Origin: a virus
Taxonomy: Duplodnaviria; Caudoviricetes
IMG/VR virus record: IMGVR_UViG_3300047160_007019
Coordinates: 1 to 64,000 of that record
Length of the DNA stretch: 64,000 bases
Direction: 5' to 3' (one strand)
Shown: positions 48,736 to 51,807 of the stretch, in pieces
How the letters are laid out: the number at the start of each line of letters is the position of its first letter
Numbering within the stretch: position 1 is the first letter of the stretch
Program-made: the position numbers and the translations under genes
The notes under the pieces: model-generated
What the model saw: the letters and a program-made list of their open reading frames with translations, nothing else
The model's database searches: none
What the model was told of the DNA's origin: nothing

Positions 48736-48811
48736 TGGTACCCCTGGGGAGACTCGAACTCCCGACACCCAACTTAGAACGAAGGGACTCTACCGACTGA
48801 GCTACAGGGGT
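48736..48811 (-). tRNA. tRNA-Arg(TCT), weak anticodon stem
   Basis: cloverleaf, loop GT-TCT-AA, CCA. Confidence 0.75.
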
Positions 48812-48823
48812 ATGGCGGACGGT

Positions 48824-48899
48824 TGGATCAAGCAGCAGGAATCGAACCTGCGTGGTCGACGTTCAAAGCGTCGCTGGGATGCCAGCAACCCATGCTTGA
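48824..48899 (-). tRNA. tRNA-Gln(TTG)
   Basis: loop CT-TTG-AA, CCA. Confidence 0.85.
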
Positions 48900-48900
48900 A

Positions 48901-48975
48901 TGGAACGCCAGGAGGGAATCGAACCCTCGGCCACCCCGCTAGGACCGGGGAGCTCTACCGCTGAGCTACTGGCGT
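48901..48975 (-). tRNA. tRNA-Arg(CCT)
   Basis: loop GT-CCT-AG. Confidence 0.85.
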
Positions 48976-48978
48976 GTG

Positions 48979-49056
48979 TGGTGCGCAGTGTGGGAGTCGA
49001 ACCCACAAGCCGCTCGTTTTGAGCGAGCGAGGTATGCCAGTTCCCTTCAACTGCGC
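48979..49056 (-). tRNA. tRNA-Leu(CAA), no variable arm
   Basis: loop CT-CAA-AA; 5-nt V loop. Confidence 0.85.
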
Positions 49057-49057
49057 G

Positions 49058-49134
49058 TGGTGCCGGGCCGGGGACTCGAACCCCGAAAACGCAAGGTTTA
49101 AATCTGCGATGTCTGCCGATTGCATCAGCCCGGC
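49058..49134 (-). tRNA. tRNA-Leu(TAA), no variable arm
   Basis: loop TT-TAA-AC; 5-nt V loop. Confidence 0.8.
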
Positions 49135-49138
49135 GTAG

Positions 49139-49213
49139 TGGTGGGGCGCATGGGATTTGAACCCACATCGACCGGATTAAAAGTCCGGGGTCCTGCCGTT
49201 GGACGAACGCCCC
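49139..49213 (-). tRNA. tRNA-Lys(TTT)
   Basis: loop CT-TTT-AA. Confidence 0.9.
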
Positions 49214-49222
49214 GCATGAAAG

Positions 49223-49298
49223 TGGTGGTGACGGCCGGGCTTGAACCGGCGCCGTCCTGGTTATGGGCCAGGCGCTCTCCCGACTAAGCTACGTCACC
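49223..49298 (-). tRNA. tRNA(CAT), elongator Met or Ile2
   Basis: loop CC-CAT-AA; no initiator features. Confidence 0.85.
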
Positions 49299-49303
49299 GT
49301 GAT

Positions 49304-49382
49304 TGGTCGGAGCGGCGGGATTCGAACCCGCGGCCCACTGTCCCCCAGACAGGTGCGCTAAACCAGGCTGCGCCACGCTCCG
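49304..49382 (-). tRNA. tRNA-Pro(GGG)
   Basis: loop CT-GGG-GG; CGGAGCG acceptor. Confidence 0.85.
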
Positions 49383-49388
49383 ATGTGA

Positions 49389-49479
49389 TGGCGGAAGGCG
49401 GAGGACTCGAACCCCAAGCGCTGTTGCGCTCCATCGGCTTTCAAGGCCGCGGCCAGCTCCGGTGCTGGCATCACCTTCC
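49389..49479 (-). tRNA. tRNA-Ser(TGA), 8/4 fold
   Basis: loop CT-TGA-AA; 8-bp acceptor, 4-bp T stem, 6-bp D stem, long V arm, G73. Confidence 0.85.
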
Positions 49480-49484
49480 GTTGT

Positions 49485-49559
49485 TGGTGCCGGCGAGAGG
49501 ATTCGAACCTCCAACCCGCGCGTTACGAATGCGCTGCGCTACCGTTGCGCTACGTCGGC
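49485..49559 (-). tRNA. tRNA-Thr(CGT)
   Basis: loop TT-CGT-AA. Confidence 0.9.
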
Positions 49560-49565
49560 GAATAT

Positions 49566-49639
49566 TGGTGCCCCAACACAGAATCGAACTGTGCTCTCCT
49601 GCTTACAAGGCAGGTGCATCCCCACAATGCTTCAAGGGC
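49566..49639 (-). tRNA. tRNA-Thr(TGT)
   Basis: loop CT-TGT-AA. Confidence 0.85.
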
Positions 49640-49640
49640 G

Positions 49641-49715
49641 TGGTGCCATCGGCAGGAATCGGACCTGCGACCTCCGCTTTACCAAAGCGGCGTTCTACCA
49701 CTGAACTACGAAGGC
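49641..49715 (-). tRNA. tRNA-Thr(GGT)
   Basis: loop TT-GGT-AA. Confidence 0.9.
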
Positions 49716-49716
49716 A

Positions 49717-49792
49717 TGGCGAACCATGCGGGAGTCCCACCCGCTTCGGTCAGCTTGAAGGGCTGATGGCTCCAGTCTTTGCCATATGGTTC
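49717..49792 (-). tRNA. tRNA-Glu(TTC), atypical T loop
   Basis: loop CC-TTC-AA; T loop TGGGACT. Confidence 0.8.
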
Positions 49793-49798
49793 TTCGAA

Positions 49799-49876
49799 TG
49801 GTGCGCCAGGGGAGATTCGAACTCCCATGGGACTGCCACCTCAAGGCAGCGCGTATACCGATTCCGCCACTGGCGC
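49799..49876 (-). tRNA. tRNA-Leu(GAG), no variable arm
   Basis: loop TT-GAG-GT; 6-nt V loop. Confidence 0.85.
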
Positions 49877-49882
49877 ATGGGT

Positions 49883-49956
49883 TGGTGGGCACAGAGGGAG
49901 TTGAACCCTCATCTTTCCGGTTAAGAGCCGGAGGCTCTGCGTTGAGCTACATGCCC
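49883..49956 (-). tRNA. tRNA-Lys(CTT)
   Basis: loop CT-CTT-AA. Confidence 0.9.
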
Positions 49957-49964
49957 ATGGAAAA

Positions 49965-50040
49965 TGGAGGGATAGGTGGAAGTCGAATCCACTAGCCAAC
50001 GGAGTCACAGTCCGCGCCCGCGCCGTTTGGGTTCTATCCC
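49965..50040 (-). tRNA. tRNA-His(GTG), no encoded G-1, U73
   Basis: loop CT-GTG-AC. Confidence 0.8.
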
Positions 50041-50045
50041 GCTGA

Positions 50046-50120
50046 TGGTGCACCAGGGTGGAGTCAAACCACCGGCCTATCGCTTATCGGGCGAGTGCTC
50101 TTTCGCTGAGCTACAGGTGC
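50046..50120 (-). tRNA. tRNA-Ile(GAT)
   Basis: loop CC-GAT-AA. Confidence 0.9.
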
Positions 50121-50128
50121 ATGAAATG

Positions 50129-50384: not shown

Positions 50385-50392
50385 AGGACTTG

Positions 50393-50479
50393 TGGCGGAT
50401 GGAGCAGGACTCGAACCTGCAGGCCGCTTGCGCAGCACCTCGCTTCCAACGAGGATCCTTACCGTTCGGACATCCATCC
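50393..50479 (-). tRNA. tRNA-Ser(GGA)
   Basis: loop TT-GGA-AG; long V arm. Confidence 0.9.
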
Positions 50480-50484
50480 AAAGC

Positions 50485-50563
50485 TGGTAGCCAACCAGGG
50501 AGTCGAACCCTGCACCTCCGGTTTGTAGGACCGGCACTCTACTCGATCATGAGCTAGTCGGCT
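50485..50563 (-). tRNA. tRNA-Val(TAC)
   Basis: loop CC-TAC-AA. Confidence 0.85.
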
Positions 50564-50573
50564 GTGGTGATGG

Positions 50574-50645
50574 TGGTGGAGCAACCGGGAGTTGAACCCG
50601 GCGAGCTGATCTTGCAAGGATCGGCTGCGCCCCGGCGCTTGCCCC
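50574..50645 (-). tRNA. tRNA-Ala(TGC)
   Basis: loop CT-TGC-AA; G3.U70 identity pair. Confidence 0.9.
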
Positions 50646-50651
50646 ATGTGC

Positions 50652-50728
50652 TGGTCCGTGTAGCGAGACTTGAACTCGCGGCCTCATCGTCCCGAACGAT
50701 GCGCTCTACCAGGCTGAGCTACACACGG
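50652..50728 (-). tRNA. tRNA-Pro(CGG)
   Basis: loop TT-CGG-GA. Confidence 0.9.
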
Positions 50729-50736
50729 ATGAAAGA

Positions 50737-50811
50737 TGGTCGGAGTGGAGAGAATCGAACTCCCTTGAACGTGCGCCCAAGGCACGGGGCCAGCCAATGG
50801 CCCACACTCCG
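50737..50811 (-). tRNA. tRNA-Pro(TGG)
   Basis: loop CT-TGG-GC. Confidence 0.85.
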
Positions 50812-50816
50812 GTTGA

Positions 50817-50909
50817 TGGTGCTTGCGCTAGGATTCGAACCTAGATCGTGCGCTAATCGGGCGCTTCAGGGTCTATAAGGCCCTCGCTCTACCGTTGAGC
50901 TACGCAAGC
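50817..50909 (-). tRNA. tRNA-Ile(TAT) with extra arm carrying a GAT anticodon-like loop
   Basis: AGGGC-CTTATAG-ACCCT then GCGC-CCGATTA-GCGC before the T arm. Confidence 0.75.
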
Positions 50910-50913
50910 ATGG

Positions 50914-50989
50914 TGGTGGTCCCGGCCCGATTCGAACGGGCGTCTCCGCGTCTTCAGCGCGGCGCTAAGGCCGTCTCAGCTACAGGACC
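50914..50989 (-). tRNA. tRNA-Phe(GAA)
   Basis: loop CT-GAA-GA. Confidence 0.9.
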
Positions 50990-50992
50990 ATG

Positions 50993-51068
50993 TGGCACAG
51001 GGGACAGGCTTCGAACCTGCAACCTGCGGTTTTGGAGACCGCCGCTCTACCAATTGAGCTACCCCCAT
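50993..51068 (-). tRNA. tRNA-Trp(CCA)
   Basis: loop CT-CCA-AA. Confidence 0.9.
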
Positions 51069-51069
51069 A

Positions 51070-51144
51070 TGGAAGCCTGGGCCGGAATCAAACCGGCGTC
51101 GTTGCGCTTTGCAGGCGCACGCATAATCACTCTGCCACCAGGCT
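51070..51144 (-). tRNA. tRNA-Cys(GCA)
   Basis: loop CT-GCA-AA; U73. Confidence 0.9.
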
Positions 51145-51147
51145 GTT

Positions 51148-51222
51148 TGGAGCGGACGGCGGGGATCGAACCCGCGACATCGAACTTGGAAGGATCGCGT
51201 TCTGCCTCTGAACTACGCCCGC
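51148..51222 (-). tRNA. tRNA-Gly(TCC)
   Basis: loop CT-TCC-AA; U73. Confidence 0.9.
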
Positions 51223-51229
51223 ATGATGT

Positions 51230-51305
51230 TGGCTTCGACGGCACGAGTCGAACGTGCGTGGCCTTGGTTCAGAGCCAAGATGGGATGCCGGCAACCCGCG
51301 TCGAA
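51230..51305 (-). tRNA. tRNA-Gln(CTG)
   Basis: loop CT-CTG-AA. Confidence 0.85.
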
Positions 51306-51313
51306 ACAGGATC

Positions 51314-51388
51314 TGGAACCCCCGGCGCGATTTGAACGCGCGACATCCGCCTTCGGAGAGCGGTGCTCTACCACTGAGCTACGAGGGT
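51314..51388 (-). tRNA. tRNA-Arg(CCG)
   Basis: loop CT-CCG-AA. Confidence 0.9.
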
Positions 51389-51393
51389 GAATC

Positions 51394-51469
51394 TGGAACC
51401 CCTGGCAGGACTCGAACCTGCGGCCTCCGACTTCGTAGGACGGCATTCTTCCAACTGAACTACAGGGGT
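51394..51469 (-). tRNA. tRNA-Arg(ACG)
   Basis: loop CT-ACG-AA. Confidence 0.9.
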
Positions 51470-51475
51470 ACAGGG

Positions 51476-51555
51476 TGGTGCGTAGCCCCGGACTCGAACC
51501 GGGAAACCGCTGGGTCTGAGCCAGCGAGGTATACCAAGATTCCCTTCAGCTACGC
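51476..51555 (-). tRNA. tRNA-Leu(CAG), no variable arm
   Basis: loop CT-CAG-AC; 5-nt V loop. Confidence 0.85.
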
Positions 51556-51559
51556 GAAA

Positions 51560-51648
51560 TGGTGGGTGCTGGCGGAGTCGAACCGATGCCCATGGGGAGC
51601 TGGTTTACAGCCAGCCGTCTTTCCAAAAGACCTTACGTCGCAACACCC
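51560..51648 (-). tRNA. tRNA-Tyr(GTA), non-canonical acceptor/T/D geometry
   Basis: loop CT-GTA-AA; V arm; 8-bp acceptor, 3-bp T stem. Confidence 0.7.
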
Positions 51649-51649
51649 T

Positions 51650-51724
51650 TGGCTCCAGTGGAGGGATTCGAACCCCCGGTGAGGTCATTAACAGTGACCG
51701 GCCTTTCCGCTTGGCTACACTGGA
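51650..51724 (-). tRNA. tRNA-Asn(GTT)
   Basis: loop CT-GTT-AA. Confidence 0.9.
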
Positions 51725-51732
51725 ATAGAAAT

Positions 51733-51807
51733 TGGAGCGGTGGACGAGAATCGAACTCGTATGATCCTGCTTGGCAAGCAGGTGCCCAACCACTGGACCA
51801 CCACCGC
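51733..51807 (-). tRNA. tRNA-Gly(GCC)
   Basis: loop TT-GCC-AA; first gene of array. Confidence 0.9.

Follow-up and report, generated by a model that had tools for sequence, protein, structure and literature searches.

The IMG/VR virus record IMGVR_UViG_3300047160_007019 (Caudoviricetes), whose first 64,000 nt form the window analyzed here, carries a tRNA array at 48736-51807 on the minus strand, made up of 37 head-to-tail tRNA-shaped genes in one orientation. The array spans 3,072 bp and sits between the early and replication genes and the packaging and structural genes of the phage. The most likely explanation, in our view, is that it is a polycistronic tRNA operon that was acquired horizontally and ends, on its 3' side, with an HNH endonuclease gene, and that it would provide the phage with a general replacement tRNA pool.

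An initial annotation of this DNA had described 37 consecutive CCA-encoding tRNA genes on one strand and had named ARAGORN as a suitable check. With default settings, ARAGORN called 33 tRNA genes in the 76,993-bp genome, all of them on the minus strand within 48736-51807 and none elsewhere. Gaps among these calls (51470-51649, 49957-50045, and 49716-49798) left room for four further genes. Relaxed thresholds raised the count to 35, with His(GUG) recovered at -ps90 and Glu(UUC) at -ps80, and the addition of Rfam searches and manual parsing brought it to 36 to 37. In our own cloverleaf parse all 37 genes have six or seven of seven acceptor pairs, a discriminator base, and an encoded CCA. The description is therefore borne out, by default ARAGORN for 33 genes and by relaxed ARAGORN, Rfam, and our parse for the remaining four. 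The genes are tightly packed: 93.8% of the bases in the array lie within a tRNA, which amounts to 12.0 genes per kb, or 10.7 per kb if the 33 default calls alone are counted. The spacers are indeed short, as had been stated, but in our parse they range from 1 to 12 nt rather than from 0 to 10 nt.

In order of transcription the genes are Gly-GCC, Asn-GUU, Tyr?-GUA, Leu-CAG, Arg-ACG, Arg-CCG, Gln-CUG, Gly-UCC, Cys-GCA, and Trp-CCA (genes 1 to 10); Phe-GAA, Ile-UAU, Pro-UGG, Pro-CGG, Ala-UGC, Val-UAC, Ser-GGA, Ser-GCU, Val-GAC, and Asp-GUC (11 to 20); Ile-GAU, His-GUG, Lys-CUU, Leu-GAG, Glu-UUC, Thr-GGU, Thr-UGU, Thr-CGU, Ser-UGA, and Pro-GGG (21 to 30); and Met-CAU, Lys-UUU, Leu-UAA, Leu-CAA, Arg-CCU, Gln-UUG, and Arg-UCU (31 to 37). 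The query mark denotes a doubtful assignment. By anticodon, all 20 amino acids are represented, as the initial annotation had proposed on the condition that the CAU tRNA is Met; judged from its sequence, this tRNA looks like an elongator Met type (G1-C72, no G29-G31 run). The weak point is Tyr, which is represented by the poorest gene of the array. Both the number 37 and the coverage of all 20 amino acids lean on this doubtful gene and are to that extent in doubt.

No anticodon is repeated: the 37 are distinct, in agreement with the earlier claim, provided that the last gene is read as Arg(UCU). When run on the window or the genome, where this gene lies on the complement, ARAGORN called a CUA anticodon ("Pyl"), while on the sense strand it called UCU. 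An amber-suppressor reading was rejected because Rfam and the sense-strand call both give UCU and the CUA triplet is one base off register. A canonical Arg(UCU) gene at the same junction in another contig, L124 (see below), also supports UCU. Nor did we find a suppressor-tRNA or stop-recoding system. The CUA call is a register artefact, stop codon use in the phage is TGA 50, TAA 25, and TAG 10, and long open reading frames are intact under translation table 11, with no sign of TAG recoding.

The stems of these genes are largely intact. Standard pairs occupy 255 of 259 acceptor-stem, 182 of 185 T-stem, and 170 of 185 anticodon-stem positions in the 37 genes, that is, 98% of the acceptor- and T-stem positions taken together and 92% of those in the anticodon stem. 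Paralogous genes differ by compensatory stem changes with no pair broken: nine between Gln CUG and UUG, eight between Lys CUU and UUU, and six between Leu(CAG) and its paralogue Leu(CAA). Some identity marks are also retained: Ala has G3:U70, and A73 is present in the Tyr candidate and in each of the four Leu tRNAs. Genes maintained by selection, and not pseudogenes, would be expected to look like this, and the compensatory changes between paralogues speak for selection and against decay. The prospect that most of them might prove to be pseudogenes, which had been put forward as grounds for abandoning the proposal, is thus improbable, although 11 genes score below the Rfam tRNA threshold. The highest pairwise identity between any two genes is 77%, so the array is not the product of recent tandem amplification, and its order is non-periodic.

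It could be argued that the array is an artefact of assembly, a chimera of phage and bacterial tRNA-array sequence, or that it consists mostly of pseudogenes. The sequence comes from one metagenomic contig, the Rfam threshold is missed by eleven genes, and the Tyr candidate is poor. However, the G+C content of the array equals that of the genome (60.6% compared with 60.5%), and the array lies on the same strand as both of its flanks. These flanks are phage genes in the order found in relatives, collinear with the related locus L003 from 47,052 down and with lambdoid early genes upstream. Among the matches listed in 401 bacterial genomes those found were single-tRNA-sized, no plasmid record matched more than 5% of the array region, and decay is contradicted by the stem integrity and compensatory changes described above. 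We regard this explanation as highly improbable.

To describe the decoding set, we used as a reference the complete genome of a member of the Burkholderiaceae that hosts a related prophage and is not the host of this phage. The array shares 35 of its 37 anticodons with the 39 anticodon species of the reference; it lacks UAG, CAC, GGC, and CGA and adds CUG and UAU. Under simple wobble, only the codons GCC, GCU, and CUA have no phage reader. These make up 7% of the 21,968 phage codons, so that the array reads about 93% of them, and the near-complete decoding set that had been proposed is upheld in this respect. Watson-Crick pairing alone covers 66.9% of the phage codons, compared with 60.6 ± 4.4% for 37 random codons (P = 0.07). 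Coverage is alike for late genes (67.1%) and early genes (66.4%), and tuning of the anticodons to late-gene codon use is not supported. The anticodon overlap and the untuned coverage point to a whole bacterial repertoire rather than a chosen codon supplement.

These data bear on codon compensation, the classical explanation for phage tRNAs (PMC6409571), according to which the array would serve codons used more often by the phage than by its host or hosts and might thereby extend the host range of the phage. Readers of AT-rich codons that are rare in a 60% G+C genome are indeed present (Leu-UAA, Ile-UAU, Lys-UUU, and Arg-UCU), and a complete set would lessen translational dependence on any one host. 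On the other hand, the array also covers the commonest codons (CUG, GGC, AAG, CAG, ACC, and AUC), it matches codon use no better than a random set and equally well in late and early genes, and it mirrors 35 of 39 bacterial anticodons instead of a selected subset. Moreover, the G+C content of the phage is typical of the proteobacterial groups that hold its relatives. Codon compensation is unlikely to be the explanation.

The array has the look of a self-contained cassette, as it lies between a strong terminator and weaker terminator-like hairpins (Table 1). The HNH gene begins 56 nt 3' of the last tRNA on the same strand, and the weak hairpin beyond it could be the end of the cassette transcript. 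The junction between the last tRNA and the HNH gene recurs in L124, an unrelated 31.5-kb contig that encodes ArdC, SSB, HU, and a UvrD-type helicase. Positions 1-751 of L124, at the contig end, contain the CCA-ending tail of one tRNA, then Arg(UCU), then a 74%-identical HNH gene; its array was probably cut off by the end of the contig. HNH genes are also found inside or beside other viral arrays (L015 and L009). The motif ACGACCCAAGCTGTYAG, which is common to both the window and L124, did not hold up as a cassette marker. It had five matches in IMG/VR, which we attribute to chance because no tRNA or HNH gene lies near any of them.

In bacterial contigs, HNH homologues of 64-65% identity lie directly 3' of RtcB (L125 8516-10564, L126 4195-6243, and L127 2142-4039). 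L127 also has a PrfH-like gene near the HNH homologue, and in L125 and L126 tRNA-Ile and tRNA-Met genes are found just upstream of RtcB. The named homologues are mostly from Nevskiales (Nevskia, Solimonas, Panacagrimonas, and Algiphilus), which offers a lead to the host. From these neighborhoods, the HNH family could be linked to an RNA-repair context or to tRNA-directed homing.

The association with an HNH gene raises the question of whether the array is selfish cargo, a mobile cassette of tRNAs and endonuclease that is maintained through homing and benefits the phage little or not at all. In favor of this, the HNH gene comes immediately after the last tRNA, their junction recurs in the unrelated L124, relatives lack the array, and terminators flank it. 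There are precedents in T4 SegB and in the homing endonucleases found beside long arrays (PMC8421152). According to the T4 work as cited in PMC8421152, the homing endonuclease SegB is linked to the tRNA cluster and promotes its inheritance; that system comprises a GIY-YIG enzyme and 8 tRNAs, whereas the enzyme here is an HNH protein (PF14279) whose closer relatives are mostly bacterial and beside RtcB. However, homing accounts for the spread of an array and not for the upkeep of 37 working structures. The array takes up 3 kb, or 4% of a genome whose size is limited by its capsid, and its 37 different genes are intact, carry compensatory changes, and include no duplicates, which argues for selection on each tRNA. 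In addition, the closer HNH homologues are mostly chromosomal and outside arrays. Selfish persistence strikes us as quite improbable.

Comparison with related phages indicates that the array was acquired. The closest relative over this region is L003, whose portal is 72% identical and which is collinear from 47,052 downward. L003 carries four tRNA genes, which lie across a shared IS1595-like gene from the position of the array and are not orthologous to its members (at most 76% identity). We also counted tRNA genes within 10 kb in 78 further related loci, 37 of them portal relatives and 41 TerL relatives. No tRNA gene was found in 73 of these, and the other five carry one or two. Large arrays, which could have been common in close relatives, are therefore not so: the relatives overall (approximately 80 loci) have 0-4 tRNAs, although close relatives are thinly covered in this sample. 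These low numbers, and the non-orthology of the four L003 genes, suggest that the array was acquired and is exceptional in its lineage.

The IS1595 gene of L003 (1487-2425, 312 amino acids) is positionally conserved with the copy in the window and stands beside the four L003 tRNAs. The window copy (46613-47284, plus strand) encodes a zinc ribbon and the start of a DDE domain and appears to be truncated, at 223 amino acids. Close to it, a stretch free of open reading frames (46094-46249) is about 70% conserved at the DNA level with L003 3409-3571, just downstream of the L003 tRNA cluster.

A search of IMG/VR with the portal for a closer array-carrying relative returned nothing, and L003 is the sole close relative whose sequence extends over the homologous region. 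The TerL search of metagenome contigs also returned nothing with the single protein, and with an alignment it returned only relatives of at most 50% identity. The initial annotation had suggested comparing the order of the array with known tRNA arrays, and here no collinearity was found in the phage and plasmid collections or the sampled genomes. No match covered more than 5% of the array region among 50,697 phage and 72,556 plasmid records, and among the matches listed for 401 proteobacterial genomes all were single-tRNA-sized, with at most 88% identity over a full tRNA. One unpublished genome among the 401, G386, gave a single ordinary tRNA match, and none of the conclusions rests on it. IMG/VR does contain other large arrays: a 38.7-kb fragment has 45 tRNAs, and records of 55.6 and 38.5 kb have 26 and 21, respectively. 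Piecemeal likenesses to unrelated viral arrays were seen as well: the Gln D-arm motif GGGTTGCYGGCATCCCA occurs in seven array-bearing IMG/VR contigs, and the 72-nt Ala and Pro(UGG) genes have 78% matches in L009.

Long tRNA arrays (L-arrays) are known from surveys of bacteria, where they comprise up to 43 genes at more than 2 per kb, are non-periodic and patchy in distribution, and spread horizontally; carriers include PCC 7120 and elements of Acidithiobacillus and Mycobacterium (PMC8421152, PMC4758250, PMC5966550). A homing endonuclease gene often adjoins them, and the Anabaena L-array is silent until translational stress (PMC8421152). The present array is like these in its dozens of co-oriented genes, its non-periodic order, its patchy spread across the approximately 80 related loci, and its adjoining HNH gene, for which homing activity is predicted. 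In contrast, it is located in a 77-kb phage rather than on a chromosome or plasmid, and it is far denser at 12 genes per kb.

The kind of element described here is also known from phages. Published thresholds for a tRNA array unit or cluster are at least 15 genes in phages (PMC6409571) or at least 20 in bacteria (PMC4758250), with at least 2 per kb, and the array exceeds all of these. In the phage survey, clusters of 15-37 genes occur in genomes from 72 kb up, at 2-10 per kb and in association with HNH genes; eight of them cover all 20 isotypes, and smaller genomes have denser clusters (PMC6409571). Examples are mycobacteriophage cluster C1 (about 155 kb, 33-37 tRNAs), the FelixO1-like myoviruses (82-90 kb, 22-27 tRNAs), and the N4-like Sulfitobacter phage phiCB2047-B (74.5 kb, 15 tRNAs in 1.65 kb) (PMC6409571). 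With 37 genes the present array equals the largest surveyed cluster, and its density of 12.0 per kb is greater than the reported 2-10. The surveyed carriers are mostly virulent myo- and siphoviruses, whereas this phage combines an SU10-type podovirus module with lambdoid early genes. The novelty claimed at the outset was therefore overstated, as such arrays were already known in phages of 72-90 kb and as mobile L-arrays in bacteria (PMC6409571, PMC8421152). This is a further phage-borne long tRNA array with an HNH gene, and it stands out for its completeness, its density, and the lineage in which it is found.

If the array is a replacement tRNA pool, it would be transcribed as a single precursor in which host RNase P cuts every 5' end and 3' exonucleases trim the trailers of 1-12 nt back to the encoded CCA. 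RNase Z and CCA addition would then be dispensable. The product would be a nearly complete, host-independent set of tRNAs, with which translation of the phage could continue when the supply of host tRNA fails. Such a failure could result from host shut-off induced by the phage or from a host defence that cleaves tRNA, and we lean slightly toward defence. Transcription, processing, charging, and benefit to the phage are all inferred here from the arrangement and structure of the genes.

Several observations weigh against a working replacement pool. The record is a single contig assembled from a metagenome. A strong terminator lies directly upstream of the array, and in the leader that follows it (51808-52018) scans for sigma-70-like promoters, tRNAs, and Rfam families detected none. 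Scores below the Rfam tRNA gathering score of 29 were obtained for 11 of the 37 genes. Our parse of the 37 genes found neither an initiator tRNA nor an Ala(GGC), so the set is not fully self-sufficient. Charging or use may also be poor for several members, since His(GUG) lacks the G-1:C73 pair and four tRNAs have C33, which weakens decoding in standard tRNAs. Finally, the fold of the Tyr candidate (z = -0.75) is no better than that of shuffled sequence. This gene received no ARAGORN call, even at -ps80, and its tRNA-Sec match (22.7 bits, E = 0.015) compares with a gathering score of 47 for that Rfam family. It has an 8-bp acceptor stem, a 6-bp D hairpin in an oversized D region, a 6-bp anticodon stem, a 3-bp T stem, and A73-CCA, giving a fold like that of tRNA-Sec.

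Other members also depart from the usual cloverleaf. All four Leu tRNAs are 77-80 nt long with variable regions of 5-6 nt (Table 1); compared with the Leu tRNAs of the reference bacterium (85-93 nt) they lack the long arm, yet they have Leu-type D arms. Short Leu tRNAs are also present in the viral arrays L010, L011, and L129. Ser(UGA) has an 8-bp acceptor and a 6-bp D stem and scores 48.7 with the tRNA-Sec model, above the gathering score, but its anticodon is UGA and not UCA. We take the architectures of Ser(UGA) and the Tyr candidate to resemble those of "allo-tRNAs". The minimum-energy fold of Ile(UAU) is five-armed (z = -2.25), and the hairpin of its variable arm (loop CCGAUUA) almost duplicates the anticodon arm of Ile(GAU) in the same array (loop CCGAUAA); in itself this gene is a long-armed A73 tRNA. 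Glu(UUC) has the T loop UGGGACU in our parse where UUCGAAU would be expected, and the Phe gene (50914-50989, minus strand) has G37 in place of A37.

Could these odd loops and arms be escape changes? On this explanation, host anticodon nucleases or abortive-infection effectors would have selected the array as a set of nuclease-resistant replacements. C33 occurs in four of the 37 anticodon loops (Val-UAC, Ile-GAU, Glu-UUC, and Met-CAU), compared with none of 41 in the reference bacterium and two of 76 in other viral arrays (Fisher P = 0.03 against the pooled 2/117). Three array loops have a purine at position 32, and 20 of the 35 comparable anticodon loops differ from those of the reference, which is not the host. 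The absence of the long arm from all four Leu tRNAs could be counted in the same way, and the phage genome encodes an RNA ligase domain (PF09414, phrog_548). There is also published precedent for phage tRNAs that have been shown or suggested to act against nucleases: those of T5 against retron Ec78 PtuAB and PARIS AriB, and those of mycobacteriophage C1 against VapC-type nucleases (PMC11555353, PMC11464382, PMC10264068).

These systems comprise phage copies of host tRNA species with altered anticodon loops, which are proposed to sustain translation once the host tRNAs have been cleaved. The present array may be alike in this, although its C33, purine 32, and missing variable arms are not the changes described there. 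Other observations argue against this explanation. The reference genome is not that of the host, and positions 32 and 38 vary among lineages anyway. The loops of the classic nuclease targets Lys-UUU, Tyr, Asn, Arg-ACG, and Arg-CCG are identical to the reference, and those of Asp and His differ at positions 32, 37, or 38 only. C33 fits no nuclease specificity known to us, and a full set of 37 genes exceeds what would be needed to replace a few targeted species. We consider nuclease-resistant replacement a tentative possibility.

It could further be speculated that the odd cloverleaves are adaptive instead of decayed and serve as a disguise, in which remodelling of the whole tRNA body would let the pool escape host nucleases that recognize both the anticodon loop and the shape of a tRNA (its variable arm, elbow, and anticodon stem). 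The features in question are the four C33 loops, the three purine-32 loops, the arm-less Leu tRNAs, the tRNA-Sec-like Ser(UGA) and Tyr candidate (8-bp acceptor, 6-bp D stem), Ile(UAU) with its second, anticodon-like arm, and His without G-1. This idea is rather unlikely. If true, escape by phage tRNAs would involve the whole tRNA body and so go beyond the present "loop mutation" model.

Table 1. Features of the array, its flanks, and the surrounding genome. Positions refer to the window unless marked as genome positions.
Feature	Position	Strand	Evidence and remarks
SU10-type portal gene	37261-39951	-	downstream of array
terL	41406-42959	-	downstream of array
terS	42969-43709	-	downstream of array
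Terminator-like hairpin, 6 pairs (weak)	47866-47885	-	3' of HNH gene and a 58-amino-acid open reading frame; possible end of cassette transcript
HNH endonuclease gene, 188 amino acids	48113-48679	-	PF14279, PF01844, phrog_16726
Last gene, best read as Arg(UCU)	48736-48811	-	Rfam alignment; two U-U mismatches in anticodon stem
Leu(CAA)	48979-49056	-	paralogue of Leu(CAG)
Leu, short	49058-49134	-	
Met, sole CAU tRNA	49223-49298	-	Rfam 64.2 bits; own parse; C33 loop CCCAUAA
Ser(UGA)	49389-49479	-	Rfam tRNA-Sec
Glu(UUC), C33, aberrant T loop	49717-49792	-	ARAGORN -ps80; own parse; cloverleaf minimum-energy fold
Leu, short	49799-49876	-	
His(GUG), U73, without G-1	49965-50040	-	ARAGORN -ps90; own parse
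Ile(UAU), 93 nt, 23-nt variable arm	50817-50909	-	ARAGORN; Rfam 57.3 bits
Leu(CAG), 80 nt	51476-51555	-	Rfam tRNA 25.3 bits; minimum-energy fold is a cloverleaf
Tyr(GUA) candidate, weakest member, 89 nt	51560-51648	-	Rfam tRNA-Sec match only
Leader, ~210 nt, terminator to first tRNA	51808-52018	-	sequence scan
Intrinsic terminator	52019-52055	-	15-bp stem, 10 G-C pairs, T run; ends ~210 nt upstream of first tRNA
RNA ligase nucleotidyltransferase domain, 184 amino acids	genome 75716-76270 (L019 15716-16270)	+	PF09414; phrog_548 positions 28-229 of 341

The genome in which the array is found is a single linear contig (CheckV 94% complete). Besides the packaging and portal genes listed in Table 1, the region downstream of the array encodes SU10-type adaptors, a capsid protein, and several very large virion proteins, all on the same strand. 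Upstream of the array are genes for RusA, DnaB, and a replication initiator. Past a divergent region at about 60.7 kb, the genome encodes a RecE-like exonuclease, RecT, an SbcC-like ATPase, NinB, a methylase, and the RNA ligase domain protein. CI-like repressors, NinB, and RusA are encoded by relatives whose portals are about 50% identical. The characterization of the phage as lambdoid and podovirus-type accordingly holds, on the evidence of the SU10-type portal and adaptors, RecE/RecT, NinB, RusA, and DnaB, and of the repressors in its relatives. Two more distant portal relatives lie within large bacterial contigs (L043 and L047). The record, which is 94% complete, yielded neither an integrase nor a resolvase. 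A Lysobacteraceae relative is a further lead to the host.

Lambdoid phages with tRNA genes between Q and the late genes carry one to three of them, for rare codons, such as ileZ-argN-argO of Stx phage 933W. The present array is placed similarly, on the same strand between a nin/RusA-type early region and the packaging genes, but has 37 genes. Lying beyond RusA/nin-like genes and a strong terminator, it would fit the late-region placement of lambdoid tRNAs. Expression at the onset of late transcription, as the initial annotation had proposed, would be plausible. A Q-type antiterminator was sought upstream of the array and gave no Pfam or PHROGs match, and no pR'-type promoter was identified; the gene found upstream resembles DUF6794 (Atlas).

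The RNA ligase domain gene adjoins a gene for a DUF5131 protein and is the only other RNA-related gene in the genome. To judge from its domain, it could take part in RNA repair. When the remaining open reading frames were scanned with Pfam, this RNA ligase domain was the only match of its kind, and no CCA-adding enzyme, Pth, aminoacyl-tRNA synthetase, or modification enzyme was revealed.

Two further observations concern the structural genes. A 1,942-amino-acid protein of the virion region (window 1357-7185, minus strand) includes, at residues 219-333, a JAB domain of the RadC-like type. The structural genes of this lineage often contain selfish elements (L005 3957-7409, L002 7024-7707, and window 33714-35711). 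In one relative the portal contains an intein, and in another a LAGLIDADG gene lies between pieces of the capsid gene.

If the array is functional, few tRNA sets known from mid-sized phages would match it in compactness and completeness (37 genes in 3.07 kb). It belongs to a lineage of temperate-type podoviruses that is otherwise almost without tRNAs, and closely related genomes with 0, 4, and 37 tRNA genes provide a clean natural comparison of what its own tRNA pool brings a phage. As a discrete cassette bounded by terminators, the array could be deleted or transplanted. Its non-canonical members (the arm-less Leu tRNAs, the elongators with C33, and the Sec-shaped Ser and Tyr) are test cases for the tolerance of altered tRNA by bacterial synthetases, RNase P, and ribosomes.

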